Assembly: GCA_965220745.1 (NCBI GenBank)
Contig: CBDCQT010000012.1
Location: forward strand, 224,001-288,000
Direction of reading: 5' to 3'
DNA: 64,000 nucleotides
Origin: Alphaproteobacteria bacterium
Lineage (GTDB): Bacteria > Pseudomonadota > Alphaproteobacteria > UBA828
The notes under the pieces are model-generated. The model was not told the DNA's origin, did no database searches, and saw only the letters and a list, made by a program, of their open reading frames with translations. The position numbers and the translations under genes are program-made. Each line of letters opens with the position of its first letter. The stretch's first letter is position 1. Below, piece by piece: positions 18,083 to 40,769 of this stretch.

Positions 18083-18637
18083 ATGTCCAGAGTACCCCTC
18101 GCCGATCCGCAAGACCTGCCGCCCTTCCTCAAGACCATGCACGACGGTGCTGGTGCGGAGGACTGGTCGACCCGCCATTGCGCCCGCGCCTTCGCGGCGC
18201 ACCCGGACATCCTGGAGCGCTATCTCGCCTTCTACTATCCCTTCCACGCGAGCGAGCCGGGAAGCCTGTTGGACTGCCGCACAAAAGAGCTGGTGAGACT
18301 GCGCATCGCCACCCTCAACGGCTGTAAGACCTGCAAGGCCGCTCGGCTCGCGCCCAGCGAGGTGAGCGAGCAGGAGGCGGCGGTCGGAGTCGACGACCTG
18401 GCCGAAGCAGAGTTCTCCTCGAGGGAACGCGCCGCGCTCACCCTCGCTGAGCAGATGGCACTCGACCACCATAGCTTCGACGACGGGGCGATGCGCGCGT
18501 TACGTCAGCACTTCTCGCGGGCCGAGACCCTCGAACTCATGATGATGATCGGCCAGTACATCGGCTTCGGCCGGATGCTGGCGATGCTCCAGCTCGAAGA
18601 GATACGCTGCTCCATCGGCCCAGTGGACGATACTTAG
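18083..18637 (+). CDS. Carboxymuconolactone decarboxylase / AhpD-like protein
   Basis: KELVRLRIATLNGCKTC (CxxC), RERAAL, LRQHFS. ATG at 18083 after GGAGG. Confidence 0.85.
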   Translation: MSRVPLADPQDLPPFLKTMHDGAGAEDWSTRHCARAFAAHPDILERYLAFYYPFHASEPGSLLDCRTKELVRLRIATLNGCKTCKAARLAPSEVSEQEAAVGVDDLAEAEFSSRERAALTLAEQMALDHHSFDDGAMRALRQHFSRAETLELMMMIGQYIGFGRMLAMLQLEEIRCSIGPVDDT

Positions 18638-18663
18638 AGCGCGTCCGTCTTTGACGGACGCGC
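18634..18663. repeat. TAGAGC-initiated palindromic hairpin at the 3' end of the AhpD-like gene
   Basis: GCGCGTCCGTC-TTT-GACGGACGCGC 11-bp stem directly after the TAG stop. Confidence 0.6.
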
Positions 18664-18748
18664 GACAGGCCGCGACCGCGGCCCGCCGCTTATGCGGCGC
18701 CCTCGCGGAGGCGCCGGCCGTGGGCCGGCTGCCGTGAGCGACGAATCG

Positions 18749-18783
18749 CTAGAGCGTTTCCGTGTGAAGCGGAAACGCTCTAG
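18749..18783. repeat. CTAGAGC...GCTCTAG palindromic element (REP-like, possible terminator)
   Basis: Perfect 14-bp stem CTAGAGCGTTTCCG-N7-CGGAAACGCTCTAG that contains the stop codon of the convergent gene. Confidence 0.7.
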
Positions 18784-19568
18784 CCCCAGACCGCCGGGTC
18801 CTTGAGGTAGTCGTGCACCACGCGGCCGAAGTTCAGGTCGAAGTCGACGACGGCGAAGAAGCCGCCCAGGATGCGCACGGGCGCCAGCTGATGCCATGAA
18901 TCGGCGGCGGTGCTCGCGAGCGTGAGCGCGGCACGGCCCGCGTAGAGCTCGGGGCTGCCGTCTCCGCTCTTGCGCAGCGCGCCCGTCACGTCGAGCCGCA
19001 CCAGCTCCGAGACGCTCGGTCGCTCCGCCGTCTCCGCGCTCGGGATGTGGCGGTAGGAAAGCACCGGCGATTCGGCAAGCTCGTCGGGCGAGGCCTTGCG
19101 GTCGCACACCATCGAGGCAGTCATCAGGCGCTGCCCGCGCGGCCGTTCCACCGTAAGCAACAGTTGCTCCATATAGGGCCTGACGTCGCCGCCCCAGTTG
19201 TGCTCGATCACGGCGACCTTCTTGGCGTAGCCCCAGATCTCGCGGCCGGCGCCGAGAGGGATATCGTTATCGACCAGGATCGCCGGCTGATACATGTAGC
19301 GCGTACCGTGCAGCGTCACGTCGACCATGACGAAGGCCTCGTGATAGGGGCCGAAGGCCGAGAACGGGACCCAGCGCGCCCACGAGGTGCAGATTACCGG
19401 ATCGTCTGCCGGCTCCACGTGGGGCGGCAGCAGCTCCACCACTGCGGTGCTGTCAGCCTCGTAGCGGATCATCAGGTCCTGCACGCCGCGGAAGGGATAG
19501 GGTGGGGCCTCATACATCGGGCCGCCCAGCGGCATGCTGAAGTGGCGCTTGAAGGTGGCGATGTCCAT
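18780..19568 (-). CDS. Acetoacetate decarboxylase family protein
   Basis: SMPL...PPYPF, FGPYHE, GREIWGYAKK (Schiff-base Lys motif), VVHDYL C-terminus. Confidence 0.9.
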   Translation of the reverse strand: MDIATFKRHFSMPLGGPMYEAPPYPFRGVQDLMIRYEADSTAVVELLPPHVEPADDPVICTSWARWVPFSAFGPYHEAFVMVDVTLHGTRYMYQPAILVDNDIPLGAGREIWGYAKKVAVIEHNWGGDVRPYMEQLLLTVERPRGQRLMTASMVCDRKASPDELAESPVLSYRHIPSAETAERPSVSELVRLDVTGALRKSGDGSPELYAGRAALTLASTAADSWHQLAPVRILGGFFAVVDFDLNFGRVVHDYLKDPAVWG

Positions 19569-19592
19569 GGCGGGTTTCCCTGGCGCGCGGGC

Positions 19593-20366
19593 CTAGCCGT
19601 TTTCCGTGTCGAGCGCGGACCAGTCGTCGAGCCTGCCGTAGAGGTAGGGCACAAATTCATCGGCCGGCAGGCGGGCCAACGGACGGCAGGTGGAAAGCAG
19701 GTCGCCCTCGATGTAGGAGGCGCCGCGCACCTCGCAGACCTCGATGTCGGCCAGCGGATCGTGCGCCGTCGAGCGCAGCGCGAGCGTGCCGGTCCCCTCG
19801 CGTCGCACCGTCAGATGATTGTCGAACTCGGCGAGCGTCAGCACGGGATCGTCCTCAAGGCCTGTACCGGTGCAGGACGGCAACGCCTTGATGTTGAAGT
19901 TGGCGCCCGTCTCGCGGCCAGCCTCACGCTCATGCGGCAGCGTCGCCTCGATCTCGATCACGCGTGTACCGAGCCGCTCGATATAGCCGTGCATGGCATT
20001 GCCGCGGCGCTGTAGGCGCGTCGTGGCCTGCTTCTTCGGCTCGCCGAAGAGGTCGCGCCCGAAGATGATCGCGTGGTCCTGATCCATAAACATCGCGAGC
20101 ACGTAGGGCGCCTCGATCTCCCCGTGCCGGGCCATGACGTAGATCGCGCCACCAGTGAAGTCAGCAACACAGTTGGAGCGCCAGCGGCCCACCATCGCGA
20201 TCACCAGCGGCTCCGCCACGGGCTCCAGCCCCGGCGGCAGGACCTCGGCCACGATCTCAGTCCGCGTGAGGAAATCGATCATCAGCATCTCGGCACCGAC
20301 GAAGCGCGGCCGCTTCATCACTGCCTCGATGCGCTTTACCTCCTCGGGCGTTTTCACGAAGCCCAT
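19593..20366 (-). CDS. Acetoacetate decarboxylase family protein
   Basis: LPPGLEP, GRDLFGEPKK, HDPLADIEV. Confidence 0.88.
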   Translation of the reverse strand: MGFVKTPEEVKRIEAVMKRPRFVGAEMLMIDFLTRTEIVAEVLPPGLEPVAEPLVIAMVGRWRSNCVADFTGGAIYVMARHGEIEAPYVLAMFMDQDHAIIFGRDLFGEPKKQATTRLQRRGNAMHGYIERLGTRVIEIEATLPHEREAGRETGANFNIKALPSCTGTGLEDDPVLTLAEFDNHLTVRREGTGTLALRSTAHDPLADIEVCEVRGASYIEGDLLSTCRPLARLPADEFVPYLYGRLDDWSALDTENG

Positions 20367-20401
20367 GGCGCGATCCTCCTGTTTCGGCCGGCGAGCGTCC
20401 C

Positions 20402-21109
20402 TCAGGCGCCCAGATAGGCGCGGCGCAGCCGCTCCGAATCCCTGAGCGCGTCGACGGTGCCGCTGAAGCTGACCTCACCGCCGGAGATGACGGTCCCGTT
20501 GTCGGCGACCCGGAGCGCGAAGTCCGCGTTCTGTTCGGCGACGACGATGGTGAGGCCCAGAGATTTGAGCGCGCGGAAGGTGTCGACGAGCGTGTTGATG
20601 ATGGCGGGCGCGAGGCCCAGCGTCGGCTCGTCCACCATGAGTAGCCTGGGCTGCGCCATCAAGCCGCGCGCAATGGTGAGTTGCTGCTGCTCTCCGCCCG
20701 AGAGCGTGCCGCCTGCTTGCCGGGCGCGCTCCTTGAGGATGGGGAACATCGCGTAGTTGCGCTCGATCAGCTCGCGCGTCTTCGCCCGTTCGCGGATGTG
20801 CACCGTGGCGCCCACCAGCAGATTGTCGAGTACGCTCATCTCCGGGAAGATGCGCCGCCCCTCGGGCACGTGGGCGATCCCGTCCAGCACGATCCGGTCC
20901 GGCGATCGCCGGAGAAGCGACTTCCCTTCGAAGTCGATCTGCCCCGCAAGCGGGCGCATGAGGCCGCTGATCGCCCGCAGGATCGACGTCTTGCCCGCGC
21001 CGTTGGGGCCGAGCAATGCGCAGACTTCCCCCTGATCCACCGACAGGTTGAAACCGCGCACCACGCGGTTCACACCGTAGACGAGCGTCAGGTTGTCGAT
21101 CGCCAACAT
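20402..21109 (-). CDS. livF: Branched-chain amino acid-type ABC ATP-binding protein (LivF-like)
   Basis: GPNGAGKT, HVPEGRRIF, LSGGEQQ, DEPTLGLAP, EQNA. Confidence 0.92.
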   Translation of the reverse strand: MLAIDNLTLVYGVNRVVRGFNLSVDQGEVCALLGPNGAGKTSILRAISGLMRPLAGQIDFEGKSLLRRSPDRIVLDGIAHVPEGRRIFPEMSVLDNLLVGATVHIRERAKTRELIERNYAMFPILKERARQAGGTLSGGEQQQLTIARGLMAQPRLLMVDEPTLGLAPAIINTLVDTFRALKSLGLTIVVAEQNADFALRVADNGTVISGGEVSFSGTVDALRDSERLRRAYLGA

Positions 21110-21110: not shown

Positions 21111-21860
21111 TCAGTGCTCGCCGCCGAGATAGATGCTGACCACCTGCTCGTTTGAGCGGATTTCGTCAGGTGTGCCCGAGACCAGCAGCGCGCCGTGATG
21201 CATGACGAACAGGTACTCGCACACGTCCATGACTACTTCCATGTTGTGGTCGATCAAGAGCGTGGTAAGCCCGCCCCGCTGGCATTCGCGCAGGTGCTCG
21301 ATCAGGTCGAAGGACTCCTCCCGGCTGAAGCCGGCGAAGGGCTCGTCCAGCAGGAGCACCTTGGGGCCGAGCGCAAGCGCCTGCGCAATCTCGGCGCGCC
21401 GGCGCAGCAGGTGGCTGAGATCGGTTGGCAGGTCGCCGCGGACGGCCTCCAGTTCGAAGAACTCGAGCAGCGCGTCGCAGCGCACGTCCTCGTCGCCGGT
21501 GCAGCCGGGGTAGCTCAAGTCGCGGCCTCCGTGCCGGCCGCCCCAGATCATCGCTGTCCTGATGTTTTCCTCCACCGACTCTTCGGTGAAGAGGCGGTTC
21601 TTCTGGTAGGTGCGGCTGAGGCCGCTGCGCGCGACCTTGTAAGACGGCAGACGGTGGATCGGCTTCGAGTCCAGCGTCACCGTGCCCGCATCGGGCGCCG
21701 CATGCTTGGTGACGAGGTTGACGAAGGTGGTCTTGCCGGCGCCGTTGGGCCCGATCAGGCCGACCAGCGCGCCGCGCGGCACGTCGAAGCTCACGTCGCG
21801 CACGGCTTCGACGCCGCCGAAGCGCTTGCTCAGGTTGCGGACCTCGAGGATCGCGTCCAT
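21111..21860 (-). CDS. livG: Branched-chain amino acid-type ABC ATP-binding protein (LivG-like)
   Basis: GLIGPNGAGKTT, LLLDEPFAG, IDHNM, GTPDEIRSNEQVVSIYLG. Confidence 0.92.
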   Translation of the reverse strand: MDAILEVRNLSKRFGGVEAVRDVSFDVPRGALVGLIGPNGAGKTTFVNLVTKHAAPDAGTVTLDSKPIHRLPSYKVARSGLSRTYQKNRLFTEESVEENIRTAMIWGGRHGGRDLSYPGCTGDEDVRCDALLEFFELEAVRGDLPTDLSHLLRRRAEIAQALALGPKVLLLDEPFAGFSREESFDLIEHLRECQRGGLTTLLIDHNMEVVMDVCEYLFVMHHGALLVSGTPDEIRSNEQVVSIYLGGEH

Positions 21861-21866: not shown

Positions 21867-22904
21867 CTACTGTCCCCTCGCGCCGCCGCCGAGCGCCTCG
21901 GCCACTCTCTGCCTGATGCCGGCGGACTCGAGGGCGAAGCGCCAGAGCAGATTGGCGCCGCCCCAGAGTCCACCGCGGAAGAACAACACCGTGACCACGA
22001 TCAGGCCACCGAGGACGATTTGGTTCCACTTGCCGAAATCCTGGATGAACTGATCGAGAACCACCAGGAAGACGACTCCGATGGCGGGTCCCAACAGCGT
22101 GCCGGAGCCGCCAATGATGACGTAGATCACGTACTGGAAAGAGCTCCAGATGGTGAACGAGCTCGGGTCGATGGCGATCTGCATGGAGGCATAGAGTGCA
22201 CCGGAGAGGCCTGCGAAGCCGGCGGCGAAGACGAAGACAAGCTGCTTGTAGCGGAAGACGTCGAGGCCGCGCGCAGCCGCAAGGTCCTCGTCCTGGCGGA
22301 TCGCGCTCAAGGCGCGCCCCACGTGGCCGCGCGCGAGCCACCACGAGGAGAACGCCGCGATCACGAGGAAGAAAAGCACCACGATAAGGAAGCGCGCATT
22401 GGTGACGAAGGCGTAGTCGCCGAGCGCGGGCCGTGCGATGCCGGCGGTGCCGTGCGGACCGCCGGTGAACCACTCCCAGCTGTCGAACATGATGTAGAGA
22501 AGCTGGCCGACGGCGAGGGTGCCGATGGCGAAGTGGTAGCCACGCAGCCGGAACAGCGGATAGCTCAGCAGATAAGCGAGCGCGCAGGTAATGATGATGG
22601 CGCAGGGCAGCGCGGCCCAGAAGTCGAACTCGAACTGTTGCACCGTGAGCACGCCCACCACGTAGGCGCCGACACCGACAAAGCCGCCCTGACCCATGGC
22701 GAGGTAGCCCATGTGGCCCATGAGCAGCCCGAAGGGGATGACCGCGATCATCGCCGTGCCCGCCCCCACCAGCAGGCGCAGGTGATAGTTGTTGTCGACA
22801 GTCGCCCAGAGGATGCCGAGGAAGGCGAGCAGGACGAGCCAGCCGATCACGGCCCGCGTGCTGCGGTCTCGAAGCGATATCTGTGGGGCTCGCAAGATCG
22901 TCAT
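21867..22904 (-). CDS. livM: LIV-type ABC permease (LivM-like)
   Basis: RLRGYHFAIGTLA, AIRQDEDLAAARG, IIGGSG. Confidence 0.9.
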   Translation of the reverse strand: MTILRAPQISLRDRSTRAVIGWLVLLAFLGILWATVDNNYHLRLLVGAGTAMIAVIPFGLLMGHMGYLAMGQGGFVGVGAYVVGVLTVQQFEFDFWAALPCAIIITCALAYLLSYPLFRLRGYHFAIGTLAVGQLLYIMFDSWEWFTGGPHGTAGIARPALGDYAFVTNARFLIVVLFFLVIAAFSSWWLARGHVGRALSAIRQDEDLAAARGLDVFRYKQLVFVFAAGFAGLSGALYASMQIAIDPSSFTIWSSFQYVIYVIIGGSGTLLGPAIGVVFLVVLDQFIQDFGKWNQIVLGGLIVVTVLFFRGGLWGGANLLWRFALESAGIRQRVAEALGGGARGQ

Positions 22905-23776
22905 GCGTTGCGATCCGGCAGACCGAAGAGCCCCTGCGGGCGGATCATGAGAATCGCCAGAAGCACCAGGAAGGGCACTAGATCGCCGAGCTTGGAGCCG
23001 ACGTAGAAGACCGTGAGGTTGTAGAGAATGCCGAGGATGAGGCCGGCGACGATTGAGCCCGCGATGCTGCCCATCCCGCCGAATATGATGATGACCAGCG
23101 CCATGAGCAGCGGCTGAAAGCCCATGTCCGGCCGCACGTTGAACAGCGCGCCGAGCATGGCACCGGCAGCACCGCCGAGCGCGCCGCCGAGGAAGAACAC
23201 GATCGCCGCCACGCGGCGCTTCTTGATGCCCATCAGGGCGGCGGTCTCCTCGCCCTGGGCAGTGGCGCGCATGGTGCGCCCGAGGTGAGTGCGGTAGACG
23301 ACGAAATAGAGTAACGCGAACAGGACGAGCGTAATGGCGATGGTGACCAGTCGCGCGCCGTCGATACGAATGTCGCCTGCCGTCAGCGCCCAGTCCTCCC
23401 CCGGCATGGCGATCGGTCGCGCCTCGAAGTCGCCCCAGATGCGAAGCGCCGTGGTACCGAGAACCATGTAGAGGCCGAGCGACGCCAGCAGCTGGTCGGT
23501 CAAGGGCCGCCGTTGAAGGAAGCGGAAGACCGCGTTCTCCAGCACGATGCTGAGCAGCCCCATGACGATCATGGCGGCGAAGAAGCCGACGAAGAAATGG
23601 GTACCGAGCTGCGTCGCGACCACGTAGGCCACGAAGCCGCCCAGCATGATGAGCTGGCCGTGGGCGAGGTTGATGACCCTGTAGACGCCGAAGATGAGGG
23701 CGAGGCCCGCCGCCGCGACGGCAAGGTTCATGCCATAGGAGGCGCCGTAGATCAGCTGCTGGGCGAACGCGGTCAC
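22901..23776 (-). CDS. livH: LIV-type ABC permease (LivH-like)
   Basis: GLALIFGVYRVINLAHG, LGRTMRA, FGGMGS. Confidence 0.9.
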   Translation of the reverse strand: MTAFAQQLIYGASYGMNLAVAAAGLALIFGVYRVINLAHGQLIMLGGFVAYVVATQLGTHFFVGFFAAMIVMGLLSIVLENAVFRFLQRRPLTDQLLASLGLYMVLGTTALRIWGDFEARPIAMPGEDWALTAGDIRIDGARLVTIAITLVLFALLYFVVYRTHLGRTMRATAQGEETAALMGIKKRRVAAIVFFLGGALGGAAGAMLGALFNVRPDMGFQPLLMALVIIIFGGMGSIAGSIVAGLILGILYNLTVFYVGSKLGDLVPFLVLLAILMIRPQGLFGLPDRNA

Positions 23777-23914: not shown

Positions 23915-25294
23915 TTATTTCGGCAACTTGTCGCCGTACACGTACGGCCCGTAGAAGAGCTCGTCCCGGTAACTGATGCCGGTGTACCAGACCTTCTCGT
24001 CTGCGACGCCAATGATGTACTCGGTCGCGAAGAGCTGGCCGGTTTTCTCGCCGGTATCGGGCCGGGTGAAGAACTCGTTTGTCGGCCCGCGCAGGCCGTT
24101 GATCTTCAGGTTGCGCCAGGCTTCCACGATCTTGTCGTTGTCGGTGTGGTCGCCCGAGGCCTGCACGCCGTAGAGGAACCAGATGGCGGCGTCGTAGGCG
24201 CCGCGATCGAACGGGCTCGAGTTCCCGACTTCAGTCTCGCCGTACTTCGCGTTGTAGATCGGCACGTATTTCTCGACGCGCGCCAGCGTGGCTTCGTCCT
24301 GCGCCGGGTTGTGCTCTTGCCAGCCCCAGACGTAACCCGACGACATGTTGATGCCTTGATCCTTGGCCACGTCGACGAAGATCTGGAGCATCAGCACGTC
24401 GTTGCCCAGCAGGATGATCTCGCCGGTCTCGTAGTTGAGCCCCTGCTTCTTCATCTCATTCATGATCGCCAGCATGTCGGGGAAGATGTAGGCGTCCATC
24501 AGGACGATGTCGGGGTCCTGTTCCGCGAGCTTGGCGACGTGGGGCGCGAAGTCCGTGGTGCCGAAGGGATAGAGCACCGCCCAGTCGTGCTGGTACTCGT
24601 ACCGGCCGCCGCCCTTCTCTACCGCTTCCTGCCAGCCGATAGAGCCGTGCACGGTGTAGAGCTCGTTGCGGCCGATGAAGCCGAGCTTCTTGCGCCCATC
24701 GAAGAGGGCGGGATCGATGCCGTGCTCCGCCAGCCTCTCGGGCGTCTCATGGATGAACTCGCCCATGGCGTGCTTCTCGATCACGCCGGTGTCGGTGATG
24801 TCGTGGCCATACTCGCGGCCCACGGTCATCGCCGGGCTCGAGCAGATCGCGCAGATGCTGATGATTCCCTGCGGATCGAGGATCGACGCGGCAGACAGCA
24901 GCGCCGAATTCATCCGGGGGCCCCAGATCGCGCGGGCTTCGTCCTGCTCGACCAGGCGGATGACGGCGTCGATCGACTTCTTGTCTTCGGAGACGTCGTC
25001 ATAGGCCGTCCACTCAATGGGGATGACCTTGTCGCCGATCTTGAGGCCGCCGCCCTCGCACGGTTGCGGTGGTACGGCTTCGACAATGCAATCGCCTTTC
25101 ATGAACTGCTCGACGGCGAGCCTCACGGCCGCTTCCTCGAAGAGCCCCAGGAACGAAGCCGGACCCGACAGCGTGAAGACGCCGCCAAACTTGAAGGTGT
25201 CTTCCGCCTTGGCCAGTTGCGGGCCGGCCACGAGCCCCGCACAGAGCGCCGCACCCAGCAGCCCTGCCCGAATTACGCCAAAGGATGATGCCAT
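23915..25294 (-). CDS. LIV-type ABC substrate-binding protein (divergent, with insertions)
   Basis: Signal peptide, LSGPASFLG, GTTDFAPHVAKL, AYDAA. Heads the liv-like operon. Confidence 0.85.
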   Translation of the reverse strand: MASSFGVIRAGLLGAALCAGLVAGPQLAKAEDTFKFGGVFTLSGPASFLGLFEEAAVRLAVEQFMKGDCIVEAVPPQPCEGGGLKIGDKVIPIEWTAYDDVSEDKKSIDAVIRLVEQDEARAIWGPRMNSALLSAASILDPQGIISICAICSSPAMTVGREYGHDITDTGVIEKHAMGEFIHETPERLAEHGIDPALFDGRKKLGFIGRNELYTVHGSIGWQEAVEKGGGRYEYQHDWAVLYPFGTTDFAPHVAKLAEQDPDIVLMDAYIFPDMLAIMNEMKKQGLNYETGEIILLGNDVLMLQIFVDVAKDQGINMSSGYVWGWQEHNPAQDEATLARVEKYVPIYNAKYGETEVGNSSPFDRGAYDAAIWFLYGVQASGDHTDNDKIVEAWRNLKINGLRGPTNEFFTRPDTGEKTGQLFATEYIIGVADEKVWYTGISYRDELFYGPYVYGDKLPK

Positions 25295-26185: not shown

Positions 26186-26304
26186 GGCGGGGATCCTTTC
26201 GGGCACGCGCGGCGGGGGCGGCAGTCTCTTCGCCGTGCCAACAGAGCGCAAGGACGCTTCCGAGTAACGCTGAAATGCGGGGCCGGCGATGCGGTGTGCC
26301 GGCA

Positions 26305-26333
26305 TTGACAGCCCAAAGGGCGATCCGCATGTT
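26305..26333 (+). promoter_or_regulatory. Putative sigma70 promoter of the dikinase-like/carboxylase operon
   Basis: TTGACA-N17-CATGTT about 40 bp upstream of GTG 26372. Confidence 0.5.
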
Positions 26334-26371
26334 GGCGCCTCCGTTCCGGCGAGCCTGCCCTGGGGGAGAGA

Positions 26372-33069: not shown

Positions 33070-34427
33070 TGGCCCTCTCGCGGGTCTTCGTCGCCAACAG
33101 GGGCGAGATCGCCGTGCGCATCGTTCGCGCCTGCCGCGCGCTCGGGCTTGAGAGCGTCGTCGGCGTCTCCGACGCGGACCGCGAGAGCCTGGCGGCGGAG
33201 CTCGCGGACCGAGCGGTCGTGCTGGGTCCGGCGCCGGCGCGGGACAGCTATCTCAATGCCAATTTGGTGGTGCACGCGGCGAAGGCGACCGGGTGCGACG
33301 CATTGCATCCGGGCTACGGCTTCCTCTCCGAATCGGCGGCGCTTGCCGGGCTGAGCGAGCGGGAGGAGATCGCGTTCGTCGGACCGCGGGCCGAGACCAT
33401 CGAGCGGCTCGGCGACAAGCTCGCCGCCCGCGCTATCGCGGCCGAGGCGGGCGTTCCCATCGTCCCCGGTTCGGGTGAAATCCGCTCGGCGGCAGACGCC
33501 AGCAGGTTCGCCGCCTCCGCAGGCTATCCGGTGCTGTTGAAGGCGAGTGCCGGCGGCGGCGGGCGGGGCATGTTCGTTGCGCGAACGGACGCAGACATCA
33601 ACGACGGCTTCGAGCGCGCATCTGCGGAGGCCGAGGCTGCCTTCGGCGATGGGGCGCTCTTCGTCGAGCGCTTCGTCGAGGACGCGCGCCATGTCGAGGT
33701 GCAGATCATGGGGGACGGCGCCGGCGCAGTCGTCCACTTCGGCGAGCGCGACTGCTCGGTGCAGCGCCGCTTTCAGAAAATGGTGGAGGAAGCGCCGGCG
33801 GCGGCGCTGCCGGCCGAGGCGCGCGCGCAGATTCACGATGCGGCCTGCCGTCTCGCGCGGCACCTCGATTACCGAAGCGCGGGCACGGTGGAGTTCCTCT
33901 ACGATGTCGCGCGAGAGGAGGCCTATTTCATCGAGGCCAATGTCCGTATTCAGGTGGAGCATCCGGTGACAGAGGAAGTCACCGGCATCGACCTGATCGA
34001 GGAGCAGCTGCGCATCGCAAGCGGCGGCGGGCTCAGCGTCGCGCAAGAGGACATCGCGCTGAGCGGCCACGCCATCGAATGCCGAATCAACGCCGAGGCG
34101 CCGGAGCGGGACTTTGCGCCATCGCCCGGCCTGATCGACGCCTGGTGCCCGCCGAAGGGCCAGGGCATCCGCATCGACAGCCATTGCCGCGCGGGCGCCT
34201 TCGTGCCCCCCTTCTACGACAGCATGATCGCCAAGCTGATCGTGCGCGCCGACGATCGCGCCGAGGCGGTGATCCGCATGGGCGGTGCGTTGGAGAAGTT
34301 TCGGATCGACGGGATCGACACGAACCTTGCCTTCCAGGCGCGCCTGGTGCGGCACCCCGACTTCACGGCCAACAGACTCAACACACGCTGGCTGGAGGAT
34401 GTCTTCATGCCCTCGCTGGCGTCCTGA
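33066..34427 (+). CDS. Biotin carboxylase subunit
   Basis: ANRGEIAVR, HPGYGFLSE, GGGGRGM, RDCSVQRR, RIQVEHPVTE, YDSMIAK. Confidence 0.95.
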   Translation: MMALSRVFVANRGEIAVRIVRACRALGLESVVGVSDADRESLAAELADRAVVLGPAPARDSYLNANLVVHAAKATGCDALHPGYGFLSESAALAGLSEREEIAFVGPRAETIERLGDKLAARAIAAEAGVPIVPGSGEIRSAADASRFAASAGYPVLLKASAGGGGRGMFVARTDADINDGFERASAEAEAAFGDGALFVERFVEDARHVEVQIMGDGAGAVVHFGERDCSVQRRFQKMVEEAPAAALPAEARAQIHDAACRLARHLDYRSAGTVEFLYDVAREEAYFIEANVRIQVEHPVTEEVTGIDLIEEQLRIASGGGLSVAQEDIALSGHAIECRINAEAPERDFAPSPGLIDAWCPPKGQGIRIDSHCRAGAFVPPFYDSMIAKLIVRADDRAEAVIRMGGALEKFRIDGIDTNLAFQARLVRHPDFTANRLNTRWLEDVFMPSLAS

Positions 34428-34438: not shown

Positions 34439-35899
34439 ATGGCGCACATCGAGTTCCTCGACGAGACCATGCGCGACGGGCAGCAGAGCCTGTGGGGCAT
34501 GCGCATGCAGGCCGGCATGGCGCTCCCCATTGCCCCGGTGATCGACCGCGTGGGCTACCGCGTAGTGGACCTCACCGGATCGAGCCTCTTCGAGGTGCTG
34601 ATCCGCCACTGCCGCGAGAACCCGTGGGAGGGGCTCGACCTCTTGGTCGACGCCATGCCCAACAGCACGATCCGGGGCGGCATGCGCAGCAACGCGAGCG
34701 TCACCTTCGGCGTCACGCCCGATGCGTTGATGGACGTCTGGATGCGGCAGCTCTGCGTGCACGGCTGCCGCAGCTTCTGGATTTACGACGTGCTCTTCAA
34801 CATCGACAAGACGCACCGCCTCGCCAGTGTGGCCAAGGAGTTCGGCGCGGAGGTGACAGGCGCCATCATGTTCACGCTGAGCCCTGTGCATACCGACGAC
34901 TACTACGCCGATAAGGTAGACAAGCTCTCGGCCTCGCCGGATATCGACACCATCCTGCTTTACGACACTGGCGGCGTGCTGGAGCCTGACCGCATGCGCA
35001 CGCTGGTGCCGGCGATCATGGCGAAGGCGCGCGGCAAGCCCATCGAGTTCCACTCGAATAACCTCCTGGGTGCCTCCGGCCGCGCCTACGTGGAGGCGAT
35101 CGAGCTCGGCATCCGCATCCTGCACACCGCGTGCGGGCCGATGGCGAACGGGCCCTCGGTGCCCTCGGTCGAGGTGATGACGCGGAACGTCGAGCATCTC
35201 GGCCACACCCACAACATCGACCGCGCGCTGCTGCCCGAGATCGCCGAGCACTTCGAGCGCGTTGCCGCGGCGGCCGGCTTCCCGGTCGGCGTGCCGCAGG
35301 AATACGACCTTTTTTCGGTGCGACATCAGGTGCCGGGCGGGATGATGGGCACGCTCAAGGCGCAGCTCGTCCAGCACGAGATGGCGGACCGGCTCGACGA
35401 CGTGCTGGAGGAGACCGGCCGCGTGCGCCGCGAGCTCGGCTACCCCGGTATGGCGACGCCCTTCTCCCAGCTCGTCGGCACCCTCGCTGTGCTCAACATC
35501 GTCAGCGGCGAGCGCTACGCCGTGATTCCCGACGAGGTGATCCAGTATGCCGGCGGGCACTACGGCGAGCCGGTAGCGCCCATCGACGAAGACGTGCTGG
35601 ACCGGATCATGGCCGCTCCGCGGGCGCGCGAGGTGCTGGCCGAGCCGCCGGAGCAGCCCACGCTCGCCGAGCTGCGCAAGCGCCACGGCACCGACGATGA
35701 CGACGAGCTGATCCTGCGCGCCTTGGTCCCGGCGGCGGATCTGGAGAGGATGCGGGCCGCTGGCCCGGTGAAGCGGGACTTCCCGATTCTGTCCACGCCG
35801 GAGCTCGAGCACGTGCGCAAACTCATGGCGCTGTCGACCTCGAAGTATGTCGAGGTGCAGACCGCGAAGCTCTCGGTCTCGCTGCGACGGGCGGGCTGA
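34439..35899 (+). CDS. Pyruvate carboxylase subunit B / oxaloacetate decarboxylase alpha-like carboxyltransferase (divergent)
   Basis: DETMRDGQQSLW, HQVPGGMMGTL, GYPGMATPFSQLVG. KDxxG replaced by YDTGG and HxH by HSN. Confidence 0.88.
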   Translation: MAHIEFLDETMRDGQQSLWGMRMQAGMALPIAPVIDRVGYRVVDLTGSSLFEVLIRHCRENPWEGLDLLVDAMPNSTIRGGMRSNASVTFGVTPDALMDVWMRQLCVHGCRSFWIYDVLFNIDKTHRLASVAKEFGAEVTGAIMFTLSPVHTDDYYADKVDKLSASPDIDTILLYDTGGVLEPDRMRTLVPAIMAKARGKPIEFHSNNLLGASGRAYVEAIELGIRILHTACGPMANGPSVPSVEVMTRNVEHLGHTHNIDRALLPEIAEHFERVAAAAGFPVGVPQEYDLFSVRHQVPGGMMGTLKAQLVQHEMADRLDDVLEETGRVRRELGYPGMATPFSQLVGTLAVLNIVSGERYAVIPDEVIQYAGGHYGEPVAPIDEDVLDRIMAAPRAREVLAEPPEQPTLAELRKRHGTDDDDELILRALVPAADLERMRAAGPVKRDFPILSTPELEHVRKLMALSTSKYVEVQTAKLSVSLRRAG

Positions 35900-35900
35900 C

Positions 35901-37070
35901 GTGCGCCGCGCCCTTGTCGTCGATGTCGTCCGCACCCCCTTCGCCAAGGGGCGCGAAGGGGGCGCGCTGAGCGCGGTTCACCCGGTGGACCTGCTCGCGA
36001 AGACGCTTGAGGGCCTGGTGACGCGCACGGGCATCGACCCCGGCGCGGTCGACGACGTGATTGCGGGTTGCGTCATTCAGGTCGGCGAGCAGGCCGCCAA
36101 CGTCGGCCGCCAGGCCTGGCTCGCCGCGGGCTTCCCCGAGGGTGTTCCCGCCGTCACCATCGACCGGAAGTGCGGCTCGGCCCAGCAGGCCATGGACTTT
36201 GCGGCCCAGGGCGTGATAGCGGGCGCCTACGATCTCGCCGTTGCCTGCGGGGTCGAGATGATGAGTCGCGTGCCGATGGGCAGCAACCGGCGGGGCAAGG
36301 ATCATCTGGGGCCGATGCTGCGCCGGCGCTACGCCGACGGCCTGGTGCACCAGGGCATCTCCGCCGAGCTGATTGCTGCCCACTGGGAACTCGCGCGGAA
36401 GGACCTCGATGCCTACGCGCTCCGCTCGCACCGGCACGCGGCGGCGGCCGAGGATCGCGGGCTGTTCGCCCGCGATATCGTGCCCATCGACGGGACCTCG
36501 ACGGACGAGGGCATCCGCCGCAACACGAGCGCCGAGAGGCTTGCCGCGCTGGAGCCCGCGTTCACAGACGTCAGCACGGGTGTGCGCTTTCCTGAGATCG
36601 GCTGGGTGGTGACGGCGGGGAATTCGAGCCAGGTCTCCGACGGCGCATCGGCGATGTTGATCGCATCGGAAGCGGCGACTGAGCGGCTGGACCTGACGCC
36701 GCGCGCGGCCATCACCCACTTCGCGGTCTGCGGCGACGACCCCGTGCTCATGCTGACCGGGATCATCCCGGCGACGGAAAAGCTGCTGGCGCGGAGCGGC
36801 CGGACCCTCGACGATATCGACTGCTTCGAGGTCAACGAGGCCTTCGCCTCCGTCGTCCTGGCCTGGGCAGAGGCGTTGGGGGCGGACCTCGACCGCGTTA
36901 ACGTCAATGGCGGCGCCATCGCCCTCGGTCATCCCGTCGGCGCCTCCGGCGGCCGGCTCACGGCGAACCTGATCGGCAGCTTGGAGGAAAGCGGCGGCCG
37001 GCTCGGCCTTCAGACCATGTGCGAGAGCGGCGGCATGGCAAACGCGACGCTGATCGAGCGGCTGGGCTGA
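35901..37070 (+). CDS. Thiolase (acetyl-CoA C-acyltransferase)
   Basis: DRKCGSAQQA, NEAFA, GHPVGASG, TMCESGG. GTG start at 35901. Confidence 0.94.
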   Translation: MRRALVVDVVRTPFAKGREGGALSAVHPVDLLAKTLEGLVTRTGIDPGAVDDVIAGCVIQVGEQAANVGRQAWLAAGFPEGVPAVTIDRKCGSAQQAMDFAAQGVIAGAYDLAVACGVEMMSRVPMGSNRRGKDHLGPMLRRRYADGLVHQGISAELIAAHWELARKDLDAYALRSHRHAAAAEDRGLFARDIVPIDGTSTDEGIRRNTSAERLAALEPAFTDVSTGVRFPEIGWVVTAGNSSQVSDGASAMLIASEAATERLDLTPRAAITHFAVCGDDPVLMLTGIIPATEKLLARSGRTLDDIDCFEVNEAFASVVLAWAEALGADLDRVNVNGGAIALGHPVGASGGRLTANLIGSLEESGGRLGLQTMCESGGMANATLIERLG

Positions 37071-37076: not shown

Positions 37077-37817
37077 CTACGCCGCTAGGTAGTGACCGCC
37101 GTTGACGAAGATGGTCTGTCCCTGGACGAACGCGGCCTCCGGGCGCGCGAGGAAGCGAATCACGCTGGTGTAGTCCTCGTCCTGCACGCCGCGCCCGCTC
37201 GGGTTGGTCTCGGCGGCGTGCTTCACGATCTCGTCCGCCCGATCGCCGAACAGCGCCCGCACCGCATCGGTATGGACCACGCCCGGCGCGACGCAGTTGA
37301 TGCGGATGCCGCGCGGCGCGAGCTCGCTTGCGAGATAGCGCACCAGCGATTCCGCGAGTGCTTTGGCGACGCCGATGGCGGCGTAGTTGGGCACCACGGT
37401 GCGTCCGCCCCGGCTTGTGAGGAAGAAAACGGTGCTGCCGCGCACGAGCAGCGGATCGGCCGCCTGCACGAGGTAGAGCAGCGCCGTGCCGTTGAGGTTG
37501 ACGGCGGCGGTGAAGTCGTCCGCGTCGCAGTCGAGCGCGGGCTTGGGAATGGCCCGGACGGCGCAGTGCACGAGCTGATCCAGTCGCTCGACTCGTTCCG
37601 CGACGTGCGCCAGCACGCTCCGCGCGCCCTCCGGCGTCCCGACATCCTGCTTGATCAGATGACAGCGCGCGCCCGCCGATTCGACCAGGGACCGGGCCTC
37701 GCCCGCCGCATCGTCGTCGCCCGCATAGTTGAGAAACACGTCCACGCCCGGTTCGGCGAAGGCGAGCGCAATGGCGCGCCCGATGCCCTTGGTCCCGCCG
37801 GTAATCAGGATCGACAT
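37077..37817 (-). CDS. SDR oxidoreductase, enoyl-thioester reductase (FabL-like) type
   Basis: TGGTKGIG and YAAIGVAK (YxxxxxxK). Start MSILIT at 37817. Confidence 0.85.
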   Translation of the reverse strand: MSILITGGTKGIGRAIALAFAEPGVDVFLNYAGDDDAAGEARSLVESAGARCHLIKQDVGTPEGARSVLAHVAERVERLDQLVHCAVRAIPKPALDCDADDFTAAVNLNGTALLYLVQAADPLLVRGSTVFFLTSRGGRTVVPNYAAIGVAKALAESLVRYLASELAPRGIRINCVAPGVVHTDAVRALFGDRADEIVKHAAETNPSGRGVQDEDYTSVIRFLARPEAAFVQGQTIFVNGGHYLAA

Positions 37818-38033
37818 GACGCCCTCGCTCCACGCTGCACCTTCGGACAAGCCGTCCATAAGTGCTTGATGCTACCACGCAATAGTATCGACTGCGCTGC
37901 TTGACGGAGGCCCTTCCGTCGATAGACTTCCGCCCTCTCGGCGAGTCGCTCAAGACCATCCCGCTGGTGGCGCCCGGCACACTGATCGGGCGCGGCGTGC
38001 GCTGGCGCTGGACCGCGTGAGGGGATTCGACAC

Positions 38034-38894
38034 ATGACCGTGAACACCATCGGCGTGGTCGGCGCCGGCATGATGGGCTCGGAGATCGCGCTGGTTATGG
38101 CGCTTGCAGGCAAGACAGTGCTGTTGAATGACCGCGACCGGGCGCTCCTCGACAAAGCCGTGGCCAAGCTCGATGGCGTGCTCGACAAGGGCATCGCCCG
38201 CGGCTTCTACAGCGAAGACGACAAGGCCAGGGCACAGGACAACATGCGCACGGCCCTCGACCTCGGCGACTTCGCACCTTGCGACATGGTGATCGAGGCG
38301 GTGTTCGAGGACGAGGAGGTGAAGGCTGGCGTCTATCGGGTGCTCGGCGAGATTCTGGCCCCCGACTGCCCGATCGCGAGCAACACGTCGAGCATCTCGA
38401 TCAGCGTGCTCGCCTCCTACCTGGAGGAGGCGCGGCGGCCCTTCTTCCTCGGCACCCATTTCTTCTCGCCGGTCTCGCGCATGAAGCTGGTCGAGGTGAT
38501 TCCGGGGCTGGAGACGGCGGACGAGACCGTTGCCGCCGTGATTGCCGTCTGCGAGGAGGCGGGCAAGACGCCGGTGCCGATCAAGGATGTCGTCGGCTTC
38601 GCGGTCAATCGGCTGATCCACATCTTCTGGATCGAGGCGATTCGCTTGGTGGAGGAAGGGGTGGCGACGCCGGAAGATATCGATACCGCCTGCAAGCTCG
38701 GCATGGGGCTCCCGGTCGGACCCTTTCGGCTTATGGATGCAGTGACCAACAACCTCAGCCTCGACGTGCAGGAGATCCTGCACGAGGCCTACGGGCCGCG
38801 CTTCATGCCCCGCCCCCTGCTGAAGCAAATGGTAAAGGCGGGCTACAATGGGCGGAGCGCGGGCAAGGGCTGGTATCGCTACGACGAGAGCTGA
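38034..38894 (+). CDS. 3-hydroxyacyl-CoA (3-hydroxybutyryl-CoA-type) dehydrogenase
   Basis: VVGAGMMG, IEAVFE, ASNTSSI, GTHFFSP, GFAVNR, PVGPF. Confidence 0.93.
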   Translation: MTVNTIGVVGAGMMGSEIALVMALAGKTVLLNDRDRALLDKAVAKLDGVLDKGIARGFYSEDDKARAQDNMRTALDLGDFAPCDMVIEAVFEDEEVKAGVYRVLGEILAPDCPIASNTSSISISVLASYLEEARRPFFLGTHFFSPVSRMKLVEVIPGLETADETVAAVIAVCEEAGKTPVPIKDVVGFAVNRLIHIFWIEAIRLVEEGVATPEDIDTACKLGMGLPVGPFRLMDAVTNNLSLDVQEILHEAYGPRFMPRPLLKQMVKAGYNGRSAGKGWYRYDES

Positions 38895-38938
38895 GCCGGG
38901 GCAGCGTGCGCGCTCGACCGGATCGAGGAGGGAGAGGC

Positions 38939-39970
38939 ATGGAAGCAGCGGTGTTCAAGGGCGTCGGCAATCCGCTATCGATCGAGCAGGTGGATGAGCC
39001 GTCCGTCCGCCCCGGCGACCTCCTGATCAAGGTCGAGTTCTGCGGCATCTGCGGCTCCGACCTGCACGCGACCGAGGCGGGCGCGCTGGTGGTGCCGGAC
39101 GGCCAAATCCTGGGCCATGAGTTTACCGGAACCGTCGTGGAGACGGGTGCAGAAGTGGGCGGGGACTGGAAGGTCGGCGACCACGTGACAGCCGTGCCGG
39201 TCAACGCCTGTGCGGAGTGCGGGCGCCAGTGCAAGCTCGGCATGGGCATCCACTGCCCCAACAACATCATCACCGGCTTCGGTGCGCCGGGGGCTTATGC
39301 CGAGTACATCCGCGTCGATGCCGGCAACGCGCTCAGGCTGCCGCAGGGCCTCGGCTTCCGCGAGGGTGCGACGGCGGAGCCGCTCTCGGTCGGCCATCAC
39401 GTGATCGACAAGGCAGGCATGCGGCCCGGCACCAACGTACTGGTGATCGGCGCGGGGCCTATCGGGCTCTCGTGCACGACCTTCGCGCGCTTTTCCGGCG
39501 CCCGCCACGTCGTGGTGAGCGAGTTCGCCGCGCACCGCCGCGAGCGCGCGCTCGCGATGGGCGCGACCGCGGTCATCGATCCCAACGCGGGCGATGTGGC
39601 CGAGCAGTATGCGGCAATCGCCGGCGGTCCGCCCGACCTGGTAATCGAATGCGTCGGCGTTCCCGGCATGCTCGGGCTCTGCATCGACCTGGTGAAACAC
39701 CAGGGCAAGGTCATGGTCTGCGGCGTCTGCACCAACGAGGAGAGCTTCATCCCGCTCGCCGCGCTGGCGAAGGAGGTGTGCCTACAGTGGGCGCTCGGCT
39801 ACAAGCCGCGGGATTTCGAGGTGGTGCTCGATCTGCTCGCGAACGGGCGGATCGACCCGGCGCCGCTTATTACCCACGTGATCGGCTTCGACGATCTCGC
39901 CGCGCGCTTCGAGAAGCTCAGGACGCCGACCGACGAGTGCAAGGTGCTTCTGCGCCCCCAGCGGGACTGA
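38939..39970 (+). CDS. Zn-dependent alcohol dehydrogenase (MDR family)
   Basis: GICGSDLH, GHEF, Cys cluster CAECGRQC...C, GAGPIG. ATG at 38939 after a GGAG-rich RBS. Confidence 0.92.
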   Translation: MEAAVFKGVGNPLSIEQVDEPSVRPGDLLIKVEFCGICGSDLHATEAGALVVPDGQILGHEFTGTVVETGAEVGGDWKVGDHVTAVPVNACAECGRQCKLGMGIHCPNNIITGFGAPGAYAEYIRVDAGNALRLPQGLGFREGATAEPLSVGHHVIDKAGMRPGTNVLVIGAGPIGLSCTTFARFSGARHVVVSEFAAHRRERALAMGATAVIDPNAGDVAEQYAAIAGGPPDLVIECVGVPGMLGLCIDLVKHQGKVMVCGVCTNEESFIPLAALAKEVCLQWALGYKPRDFEVVLDLLANGRIDPAPLITHVIGFDDLAARFEKLRTPTDECKVLLRPQRD

Positions 39971-39983
39971 TGGGAGGAATTCG

Positions 39984-40769
39984 ATGACCGGACGGGTTGA
40001 CGGCAAGATCGCGCTGATCTCGGGCGCCGGCACGGGCGTCGGGCGCGCCTGCATGATTCTGTTCGCCTGCGAGGGCGCCAGGGTCGTCGGCTGCTCGCGC
40101 ACCCAGGCGAACCTGGACGAGACGCTGCGGCTCACGAAGGAAGCGGGCGGCGACGGCTTCGTGGTCGCGCACGATCTGGCGCAACCCGAAGGCGCCGAAG
40201 CGCTGATCCAGGCCTCCATGGATATATACGGGCGCATCGACATCCTCGTGAACTGCGCGAGCGTCGGCTACAGCTGGCTGGAGAAGAGCCCGGACTCCAT
40301 GGGCGACGTGGTCAACACCACGCCCGAGAAGTGGCAGGAGGTGATGGGGATCAACCTCGATTCCTACTTCTATCTCTGCCGCGGCGTGATCCCCATCATG
40401 CAGAAGCAGGGCGGGGGCGCGATCGTCAACGTGGCCAGCATCTCGGGCTTCCAGGGCCTCCCCGTCGCGCACACCTACACGGCGGCGAAAGGGGCGGCGA
40501 TCAACCTGACGCGCTCGCTCTGCGTGACCTATGCCAAGGACAATATCCGCGCGAACTGCGTCGCACCGGGCTTCACCGACACGCCGATGGTGGCGCCCGT
40601 CCTCAATCTCTTCGACGATCCGGATATGGCGGACCGCCTCACGCCGATGCTGCGCCCCGGCACGCCTGAGGAGATGGCCTACGGCTGCCTCTATCTCGGC
40701 TCCGACGAAGCGACCTACTGCAACGGCACCGTGCTTACCATAGACGGCGGCACCACGGCACGACAATAG
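39984..40769 (+). CDS. SDR family NAD(P)-dependent oxidoreductase
   Basis: SGAGTGVG, VNVASI, YTAAK, VAPGFTDT. Confidence 0.92.
   Translation: MTGRVDGKIALISGAGTGVGRACMILFACEGARVVGCSRTQANLDETLRLTKEAGGDGFVVAHDLAQPEGAEALIQASMDIYGRIDILVNCASVGYSWLEKSPDSMGDVVNTTPEKWQEVMGINLDSYFYLCRGVIPIMQKQGGGAIVNVASISGFQGLPVAHTYTAAKGAAINLTRSLCVTYAKDNIRANCVAPGFTDTPMVAPVLNLFDDPDMADRLTPMLRPGTPEEMAYGCLYLGSDEATYCNGTVLTIDGGTTARQ

Follow-up and report, generated by a model that had tools for sequence, protein, structure and literature searches.

A recurrent gene module of a four-part PPDK-type kinase, a biotin-dependent carboxylase and a CoA ligase as a candidate system for phosphorylation-dependent ketone carboxylation

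What kind of substrate would call for a phosphohistidine kinase, a biotin-dependent carboxylase, a CoA ligase and a thiolase encoded side by side? The question is raised by a gene cluster in a 64,000-nucleotide stretch of an alphaproteobacterial genome (contig CBDCQT010000012.1, hereafter the window; G+C content about 67%). A first, sequence-only reading of this cluster had proposed ATP-dependent phospho-activation and biotin-dependent carboxylation of a ketone. The long open reading frames (ORFs) of the window were scanned against Pfam and NCBIfam, and all the gene classes named in that reading were recovered in the cluster; that inventory needs amending for the strand of two genes and for the number of kinase ORFs. 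Two divergent units span about 18.8-40.8 kb and are separated by a gap of about 180 bp at 26188-26372. The plus-strand unit carries, in this order, genes for p250, p518, a CoA ligase, p200, a short pyruvate phosphate dikinase (PPDK), a biotin carboxyl carrier protein (BCCP), a biotin carboxylase (BC), a carboxyltransferase (CT), a thiolase, a 3-hydroxyacyl-CoA dehydrogenase (HADH), a Zn-dependent alcohol dehydrogenase (Zn-ADH) and a short-chain dehydrogenase/reductase (SDR), with a second, FabL-like SDR gene lying within it on the opposite (minus) strand. The minus-strand unit, a transporter/ADC unit headed by surE, continues with genes for a Peripla_BP_6 binding protein, LivH, LivM, LivG and LivF and two ADC-family genes. 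We see about an even chance that the encoded enzymes follow a phosphorylate-carboxylate-dephosphorylate route, like that of the Hpe enzymes introduced below, on a ketone that also bears a hydroxyl group. The genes on which this reading turns, hereafter the module and its phosphatase, are the following.

25397-26188, minus strand: SurE-family phosphatase paralogue (NF001490, 331.5 bits against a cut-off of 233)
26372-27124, plus strand: p250, with a C-terminal PEP-utilizers swivel domain (PF00391, E 8.2e-7)
27121-28677, plus strand: p518, presumed substrate-binding/catalytic kinase subunit, without a family match
28719-30212, plus strand: AMP-forming acyl-CoA ligase of the FadD/MenE class, 497 aa (AMP-binding and AMP-binding_C)
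30216-30818, plus strand: p200, putative kinase subunit with a weak winged-helix signal and a conserved C-terminal helix region
30821-32581, plus strand: short PPDK, 586 aa (NF004531, 712.7 bits against a cut-off of 456)
32578-33069, plus strand: BCCP (Biotin_lipoyl; TIGR00531 at 105.3 bits, under its cut-off of 115.2) with the EVMKL biotinylation motif
33066-34427, plus strand: BC (NF006367, 611.9 bits against a cut-off of 597; Biotin_carb_N, CPSase_L_D2 and Biotin_carb_C)
34439-35899, plus strand: divergent PycB/OadA-like CT (PYC_OADA and a weak HMGL-like match)
35847-37070, plus strand: thiolase, start uncertain, domain from about 35913 (Thiolase_N and Thiolase_C; TIGR01930, 426.9 bits against 240.55)

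To what extent do these genes keep company elsewhere? A scan for p518 in one genome per species returned 14 loci (designated by L numbers, as are the other loci compared), and the window proteins were mapped onto them to read the gene order. One locus (L002, a 3-kb contig) was too short, which left 13 to be judged. Eight of the 14 belong to close relatives, metagenome-assembled genomes (MAGs) of Rhodospirillales or Alphaproteobacteria with 94-98% p518 identity. The other six are distant (64-70% p518 identity): one is from Roseiarcus fermentans DSM 24875, and the rest are from single MAGs of Alphaproteobacteria, Roseiarcus, Gammaproteobacteria, Gemmobacter and Acetobacteraceae. All 13 judged loci have p250, p518, p200 (fused to p518 in L009), short PPDK, BCCP and BC genes in unchanged order. 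The CT gene is present in 12 of them (the L012 contig ends before its position), the CoA ligase gene lies between those of p518 and p200 in 12 (the exception being L009), and the thiolase gene follows that of the CT in 11 (not in L009, and L012 is cut). Rhodococcus oxybenzonivorans S2-17 and R. pyridinivorans P23 have the same operon on plasmids, with generic annotation only, and the pSA1 plasmid of Novosphingobium resinovorum SA1 carries the module genes in a rearranged order. Such an arrangement is far beyond chance. Co-occurrence of these parts elsewhere, on which the sequence-only reading had made its proposal depend, was found across alphaproteobacterial orders, in a gammaproteobacterium and in Actinomycetota. 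The p518 gene was detected in none of 400 other genomes sampled from the phylum, and the module is rare among sampled genomes, yet widespread in metagenomes. A word-index search gave 988 relatives of p518 at E <= 0.001 among 8000 candidates scored, all unnamed or called "hypothetical protein", and a profile search of 1.84 billion protein representatives gave 502 at E <= 0.001 and 99 at 1e-30.

Some local peculiarities were seen along the way. The p250 orthologue of the close relative L007, a complete-chromosome MAG, contains an internal stop codon (about 9249-9995), which may reflect a sequencing error or a broken gene. On pSA1 of N. resinovorum (L019), a BioB-like radical-SAM gene lies directly upstream of p518 (12806-13903), and an additional small biotinyl-domain ORF follows the short PPDK gene (25950-26345).

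The kinase is the most unusual part of the module. Pfam detects only PPDK_N and the PEP-utilizers swivel domain in the 586-residue short PPDK, in which the GGATSHAA histidine motif is present, and does not find PEP-utilizers_C, the phosphoenolpyruvate (PEP)/pyruvate TIM-barrel domain. The protein matches solved PPDKs at E ~1e-115 over the nucleotide-binding and central domains, and the aligned region ends at about residue 521 of the short PPDK and about residue 549 of the targets, which are some 874 aa long; RPH-type enzymes match it in the swivel domain only (E ~1e-9). From these alignments, we assign the short PPDK to the true PPDK clade. A separate ORF of 898 aa elsewhere in the genome has the PEP-utilizers_C domain that the short PPDK lacks. 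The closeness of the ATP-grasp and phospho-histidine domains is shared with PPDK itself, including its short NF004531/PRK05878 form; the difference is that PPDK has the PEP/pyruvate TIM barrel, whereas the module protein is without it and is encoded together with p250, p518 and p200.

These three partners are less easily placed. In p250, His191 of the swivel domain is invariant in all eight orthologues. For p518, Pfam and NCBIfam give no family match and a PDB profile search returned a single match at E 0.52. An AlphaFold2 model of p518 (pLDDT 73, pTM 0.79) had 0 Foldseek matches in the PDB at E <= 1e-3, the ESM Atlas gave nothing usable, and a wide VIA-align comparison reached a best Z of 5.7 over 80 residues, so that the fold is neither proven new nor known. 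For p200, no Pfam or NCBIfam family was found at E <= 1e-5, and a FeoC-like match appeared only at E 0.0017.

Natural fusions tie these proteins together. Fused p518-p200 proteins occur as P0063 and P0104 (about 720 aa) and in L009 (717 aa), and p200 is found at the C-terminus of p518 in P0121/P0123-length forms as well. Plasmid pROB02 of Rhodococcus opacus B4 encodes a 793-aa "PEP-utilizing enzyme" made of a swivel domain (34% identical to that of p250), a p518-like domain (26% identical over 345 residues) and a p200-like tail. Among N-extended p518 relatives, the swivel domain came first in all three scanned (P0178, P0217 and P0261, of 516, 575 and 777 aa). A complex prediction for p518 and p250 gave an ipSAE of 0.86 against 0.00 for the best control, a mark reached by 58 of 80 solved complexes and by 2 of 110 mismatched pairs. 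Three runs shared at least 81% of contacts with a partner pLDDT of at least 85, and the predicted interface comprises R189-S190-H191 of p250 and invariant patches of p518, which supports, at the level of a structural model, binding of p250 by p518. Because of the natural fusions and this prediction, we regard the four kinase ORFs as parts of one enzyme. The "split dikinase" of the sequence-only reading was right in kind, as a dikinase-like module, and wrong in its count of two parts, since four ORFs are involved.

Relatives of the kinase parts were encountered in other settings. Just upstream of the module on pRB98 of R. oxybenzonivorans (L017, 7902-12272) lies a second paralogous kinase-like set, without an ATP-grasp gene of its own. 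It encodes two swivel proteins, one of 125 aa and one of 542 aa that also has a p518-like part, together with a p518-like core of 398 aa and a hypothetical protein of 381 aa. A plasmid of Methylibium petroleiphilum PM1 (L032, 9890-12106) encodes a distant p518-like protein (about 25% identity) with a 149-aa swivel protein, a few kb from a cluster for a B12-dependent mutase, MeaB and a CoA ligase.

Is there a known pathway with this logic? The hpeHICBADEF cluster of Rhodococcus rhodochrous GD02 brings together genes for a dikinase, a biotin carboxylase of three parts, a CoA synthetase and a phosphatase (PMC9618137). In that pathway, 4-hydroxyacetophenone and acetovanillone are first phosphorylated at the phenolic hydroxyl by HpeHI. 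HpeCBA, which is homologous to XccBCA, accepts only the phosphorylated ketone for carboxylation; the HAD-type HpeD then takes the phosphate off, and the CoA ester is formed by HpeE and cleaved by HpeF (PMC9618137). The same article describes acvABCDEF of Sphingobium SYK-6 as homologous and syntenic to the hpe genes, xccBCA of strain EbN1 as clustered with hpeHI homologues, and CreHI as starting 4-cresol catabolism by phosphorylation (PMC9618137). A second kinase type, the UPF0261 kinase MarK, was added in 2025 for acetovanillone in Novosphingobium aromaticivorans (PMC12624787). The statement of the sequence-only reading that no described pathway joins such parts is thus contradicted by Hpe/Acv (2022, PMC9618137) and its MarK variant (2025, PMC12624787).

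The likeness extends to the overall plan, with an ATP-dependent dikinase, a biotin carboxylase with a PycB-like CT, a phosphatase and CoA activation in one cluster. For sequence comparisons, a Rhizobium leguminosarum plasmid cluster (syntenic, HpeHI-type) and plasmid clusters of Pseudomonas putida YC-AE1 and Sphingomonas bisphenolicum AO1 (MarK-type) served as stand-ins. The Hpe/Acv kinase is a two-component enzyme of the RPH/PpsAB type, with the ATP-grasp on HpeI and the substrate-binding and swivel domains on HpeH, whereas that of the module combines a true-PPDK ATP-grasp and swivel with p250, p518 and p200; homology between the two is confined to the ATP-grasp (24% identity to the HpeI-like protein) and swivel domains. 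When p518 and p200 were compared with the HpeH-like and HpeI-like proteins of the R. leguminosarum cluster, nothing better than E 0.065 was obtained. The remaining steps differ likewise: the phosphatase is the HAD-type (NagD-like) HpeD in one system and SurE or Y_phosphatase3 in the other, the CoA step relies on the AcsA-like synthetase HpeE versus a FadD/MenE-like ligase, and the last step on the HpeF hydrolase versus a thiolase. In the MarK clusters the kinase is exchanged while carboxylase and phosphatase stay, which is a further likeness; MarK, however, is a single UPF0261 protein and the module kinase has four parts. A comparison of the window kinase parts with the MarK-like protein of P. 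putida YC-AE1 found no similarity, and no UPF0261 Pfam match was found in the cluster ORFs. By sequence, then, the module is not an orthologue of the Hpe/Acv pathway and is built largely from non-orthologous parts. Of the stand-in clusters, those of S. bisphenolicum AO1 (L020) and P. putida YC-AE1 (L021), with a UPF0261 kinase, BCCP, BC, CT and HAD phosphatase, lie on mobile plasmids beside transposase genes.

Two further systems invite comparison. The p-ethylphenol pathway of EbN1 (Aromatoleum aromaticum) uses XccABC followed by the AcsA ligase and the TioL thiolase, with alcohol dehydrogenases upstream. Its succession of biotin carboxylase, CoA ligase and thiolase is that of the module; its kinase is described as HpeHI-like (PMC9618137), whereas that of the module is of the PPDK/p518 type. 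The other comparison is with 4-cresol catabolism and is taken up with the phosphatases.

The CT resembles the Hpe enzymes in some respects and departs from them in others. It falls under the PycB/OadA cut-offs (NF006761, 311 against 402 bits; TIGR01108, 271 against 756.5 bits). In a small, midpoint-rooted tree of 12 rows that held seven module CTs, three Hpe/MarK-type CTs, a Burkholderia "PycB" and OadA, the module CTs form their own clade (100/98), sister to the Hpe/MarK-type CTs (98/94 for both together), with the Burkholderia "PycB" and OadA outside. The window CT is 39-41% identical to these Hpe/MarK-type CTs, which are stand-ins from plasmid clusters and not the Hpe, Acv or Xcc proteins themselves. 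It was aligned with Vibrio cholerae OadA (2nx9), whose metal ligands we take to be Asp17, carbamyl-Lys178, His207 and His209, and with 11 other CTs. D17 and H207 are kept, while K178 is replaced by Tyr179 and H209 by Asn211. The same Tyr and Asn are found in all five other alphaproteobacterial module CTs; the Rhodococcus module CT has Glu at the Lys position and keeps His-x-His. In all three Hpe/MarK-type CTs, by contrast, the Lys and both residues of His-x-His are present. The window CT retains R16, Q20 and R87, an Arg/Gln/Arg set that in OadA presumably binds the pyruvate carboxylate and carbonyl. The module CTs have Arg at OadA position 87, whereas the Hpe/MarK-type CTs have Thr there and Arg three columns later. 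Since metal ligands are lost and this Arg column is kept, the substrate or chemistry of the CT may differ from that of Hpe. If these residue roles apply, the metal site would be a rebuilt one and an anionic group would be expected near the reacting carbon; an enol phosphate, or a hydroxy-ketone phosphorylated at the alpha position, would then fit the CT better than an aryl ketone with a para phosphate. Hydantoinase_A/B-type subunits, as in acetone and acetophenone carboxylases, were not found by Pfam or NCBIfam in any cluster ORF. As a separate observation, a Burkholderia sp. THE68 plasmid (L023) encodes CT, BCCP and BC together, with the canonical metal ligands but without a kinase. Genes for a carbonic anhydrase, an acetate symporter, an ADC-family protein and a BioA-like protein accompany this trio, which may be another uncharacterised ketone or keto-acid carboxylase.

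Could these genes simply serve housekeeping C3/C4 metabolism, as a two-subunit pyruvate carboxylase and a PPDK that happen to lie beside fatty-acid genes? The best-scoring curated models, PPDK, PycB/OadA and AccC, would fit such a role. However, the genome encodes a full-length pyruvate carboxylase elsewhere (1717 bits) as well as the 898-aa PEP-utilizers_C ORF, so that the carboxylase and PPDK genes of the module are additional copies. This, together with a CT that scores below the PycB cut-off and is without two metal-ligand residues, makes a housekeeping role unlikely. The short PPDK is moreover without a pyruvate-binding domain, and the genes are interleaved with those for p518, p200 and the CoA ligase in an order kept across phyla. 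As p518 is absent from the 400 sampled genomes, it is not a housekeeping gene. We therefore consider this explanation highly improbable.

Do phosphatases accompany the module, as they do in the Hpe cluster? The stretch fetched around each module was inspected in 10 distinct lineages, and SurE and/or Y_phosphatase3 was found beside it in seven. SurE occurs alone in the window lineage and L019 and together with Y_phosphatase3 in L010, L013 and L014; Y_phosphatase3 is encoded inside the operon in both Rhodococcus plasmids (L017 and L031). A tblastn search with the HAD phosphatase of the R. leguminosarum cluster detected nothing in the window or the 10 module loci. The window genome has two surE genes, the second between serS and an M23/LysM peptidase gene. 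The module SurE is 46% identical to this second copy and 57-61% identical to the module-linked SurEs of L010, L013, L014 and L019 (Roseiarcus, Gemmobacter, the Acetobacteraceae MAG and N. resinovorum). Judging from gene context and sequence, the serS/M23 neighbourhood is the usual housekeeping setting of surE, and the cluster copy is a dedicated extra paralogue.

The phosphatase family recurs beside a paralogous kinase. On pROB02 of R. opacus B4 (L018, 305-12575), a short PPDK and the fused kinase are encoded with Y_phosphatase3, a P450, a ferredoxin, a FAD oxidoreductase, a Zn-ADH and an aldehyde dehydrogenase (ALDH). In the Cre pathway of Corynebacterium glutamicum (P450 CreJEF, phosphatase CreD), a phosphate ester is carried through several oxidation steps. 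The pROB02 cluster resembles it in combining a kinase and a phosphatase with a P450 system, an ADH and an ALDH. It contains no carboxylase, and a kinase of the p518/PPDK type takes the place of CreHI. By analogy, this cluster supports the view that p518-family kinases make stable phosphate esters. Because phosphatases travel with the module and because of this Cre-like cluster, a phosphate ester on a hydroxyl group is preferred over an enol phosphate.

On this basis, we propose the following route for the window lineage. The substrate would be imported by the LIV-type ABC system and, if an alcohol, oxidised to the ketone by the Zn-ADH or the SDRs. The four-component dikinase would then phosphorylate its hydroxyl group: the short PPDK histidine would take up phosphate from ATP and pass it to His191 of p250, held on p518/p200, and from there to the substrate bound by p518. 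BC, BCCP and CT would carboxylate the carbon beside the carbonyl of the phospho-ketone, using ATP and bicarbonate. The SurE paralogue (Y_phosphatase3 in other lineages) would dephosphorylate the resulting beta-keto acid, which the CoA ligase would convert into a beta-ketoacyl-CoA and the thiolase into acetyl-CoA and an acyl-CoA. Candidate substrates are a phenolic methyl ketone or a small alpha- or beta-hydroxy ketone. Of the scheme first put forward from the sequence, the succession of phospho-activation, biotin carboxylation, CoA ester formation and thiolysis remains the best reading, and an enol-phosphate or enamine on the ketone itself is less well supported.

Such an enol-phosphate route deserves to be weighed in its own right. 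Here the PPDK-derived kinase would treat a plain ketone as PPDK treats pyruvate and phosphorylate its enol; acetone, butanone, longer methyl ketones and cyclic ketones are examples. The CT would add CO2 with loss of phosphate and yield the beta-keto acid directly, which would make the system the biotin-dependent equivalent of acetone carboxylase or PEP carboxylase and leave the phosphatases an accessory role. The true-PPDK relationship of the kinase (E ~1e-115) speaks for it, and p518, with no recognised fold, would stand in for the missing PEP/pyruvate domain. The Tyr/Asn replacements and the retained R16, Q20 and R87 of the CT, if the residue roles given above apply, would suit an anionic group near the reacting carbon. 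The FadD-like CoA ligase, the HADH, the ADHs and the beta-oxidation-type genes nearby also fit, as do the three of 10 lineages without a phosphatase nearby. Yet the route needs no phosphatase, and a dedicated one is found in the other seven, inside the operon in two; the paralogous fused kinase occurs in a Cre-like cluster with the same phosphatase family; and the substrates of the sister CT clade carry phosphate as a stable ester (PMC9618137). The route would also cost three ATP equivalents. Acetone carboxylase needs two. We thus hold the enol-phosphate route, the main rival, to be unlikely.

Several observations nevertheless weigh against the preferred Hpe-like route through a hydroxyl phosphate ester. 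The chemistry known for the PPDK clade, to which the short PPDK belongs, is phosphorylation of an enol and not of a hydroxyl. The p518 protein is without similarity to the substrate-binding part of the HpeH-like protein, and the module CT has lost two of the four canonical metal ligands that Hpe/MarK-type CTs keep. In L009, L011 and L012 (a truncated contig), neither SurE nor Y_phosphatase3 was found in the stretch fetched. The route leaves the ADC-family proteins without an explanation, and neighbours of the aliphatic beta-oxidation type (HADH in the window; ACAD, ECH and NMO in L019) fit it poorly. Two more points bear on a 4-hydroxyphenyl substrate in particular: no PobA was detected above the cut-off in the genome, and no ring-cleavage genes were found beside any module locus. 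The genome does have intradiol and LigB-type dioxygenase genes. As hints only, the aryl-phosphatase-like Y_phosphatase3 partners favour a 4-hydroxyphenyl methyl ketone, and the missing PobA and the aliphatic neighbours disfavour it. 4-Hydroxyacetophenone was considered as the substrate and not adopted, since the genome has no PobA above the cut-off. Conversion of levulinate to 3-oxoadipate was also considered and dropped, as it leaves the kinase and the phosphatase without a role.

The position of the CoA ligase gene raises the question of whether the same parts act in another order or role. The kinase could act on a later intermediate (the hydroxyl of the carboxylated product or a CoA ester), or its phosphate could provide a leaving group or trap the compound in the cell, and not be a requirement of the carboxylation. 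Such an order would agree with the CoA ligase gene being flanked by kinase genes in 12 of 13 loci, with an SCPx-type thiolase accompanied by a second CoA ligase or CoA-transferases in eight of 10 lineages, and with pairs of APH-type phosphotransferase and ACAD genes near the module in L017 and L019. In the sole characterised analogue, however, phosphorylation comes first and is required by the carboxylase (PMC9618137), and we regard a different order as rather improbable.

What do the remaining genes of the cluster add? Besides the module and SurE, the two units encode the following.

18780-19568, minus strand: ADC-family protein 1, 262 aa (PF06314, E 3.4e-46)
19593-20366, minus strand: ADC-family protein 2, 257 aa (PF06314, E 5.5e-42)
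20402-21109, 21111-21860, 21867-22904 and 22901-23776, minus strand: LivF-, LivG-, LivM- and LivH-type ABC genes (ABC_tran, BCA_ABC_TP_C, BPD_transp_2)
23915-25294, minus strand: periplasmic binding protein, 459 aa (Peripla_BP_6, PF13458, E 1.8e-30)
37077-37859, minus strand: FabL-like SDR (adh_short_C2; NF005975 at 200.6 bits, under its cut-off of 328)
38034-38894, plus strand: HADH (3HCDH_N and 3HCDH)
38939-39970, plus strand: Zn-ADH (ADH_N and ADH_zinc_N)
39984-40769, plus strand: SDR, secondary-alcohol/butanediol-dehydrogenase-like (adh_short_C2; every NCBIfam match under its cut-off)

The surroundings of the module vary more than the module itself. The LIV-type transporter genes are syntenic only in the eight close relatives; Roseiarcus and Gemmobacter have a sugar-type Peripla_BP_4 system in their place, and N. 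resinovorum has an MFS gene. Matches of the binding protein in the PDB (4evs at E 4e-5; 8tg1) were too weak to name a ligand. Likewise, all NCBIfam matches of the CoA ligase stayed under their cut-offs. ADC-family genes lie near the module in five of 10 lineages (that of the window, L010, L011, L013 and L014). A Lys-Lys motif is functional in acetoacetate decarboxylases, and both window proteins keep it: AKK of protein 1 aligns with FPKK of acetoacetate decarboxylase 3bgt, and PKK of protein 2 with PKK of 3c8w. Orthologues of the FabL-like SDR (60-63% identity) occupy the same position in L010, L011 and L014, and a 68%-identical orthologue of the SDR at 39984-40769 follows directly after the module thiolase gene in Gemmobacter (L013). 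Among the loci compared, HADH is limited to the window's own lineage, and the Zn-ADH was seen in the window only, the loci of the close relatives ending before that position. Neighbours in other lineages include genes for P450s, for a luciferase-like monooxygenase and a mutase-like protein, for ECH and NMO, and for ACAD paired with APH.

The flanks of the cluster, which the sequence-only reading had taken for decayed DNA, contain intact-looking ORFs for ABC transporters and an amidohydrolase, among others, and showed no sign of general decay in the family scan of their ORFs. Those that bracket the cluster, at 6922-10935 (minus), 47132-50506 (plus), 43088-44280 (minus), 51703-52065 (minus) and 41491-42843 (minus), include two TrwC-type relaxase/helicases of 1337 and 1124 aa, a pair of IS3-type transposase ORFs, and one NikA-like and one JetD_C-like ORF. 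From this gene content, the cluster may lie within or beside remnants of an integrated conjugative element.

How far has such a system been described before? A literature search for a PPDK-type kinase together with a biotin carboxylase returned nothing beyond the MarK paper, although such clusters may appear in SI Fig. S5 of PMC9618137 or in Datasets S2/S3 of PMC12624787. The available parts of PMC9618137 and PMC12624787 mention no PPDK-type kinase, p518, SurE or Y_phosphatase3, and the titles and abstract openings of the R. oxybenzonivorans articles among the matches listed include none on the cluster. The logic of the pathway is thus already known, and its present implementation appears undescribed.

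Phosphorylation before carboxylation was recognised in 2022 for lignin methyl ketones, and two kinase types are known for it so far. The module would add a third, mechanistically distinct one, in which a truncated PPDK would hand phosphate to a separate histidine carrier docked on p518, a member of a family of 502 representatives currently without any annotation. It would also widen the range of phosphatases that take part, with a catabolic role being proposed for a SurE paralogue for the first time, and add a CT with a changed metal site. Were the enol-phosphate route true instead, ketone carboxylation would have a third solution, unrelated to both the acetone/acetophenone carboxylases and the Hpe-type enzymes. 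Cultured carriers exist in Roseiarcus fermentans DSM 24875, Rhodococcus oxybenzonivorans S2-17, R. pyridinivorans P23 and Novosphingobium resinovorum SA1, and the module offers new parts for engineering ketone assimilation. Its presence in many uncultured Alphaproteobacteria would point to an unrecognised carbon source or route in their habitats.

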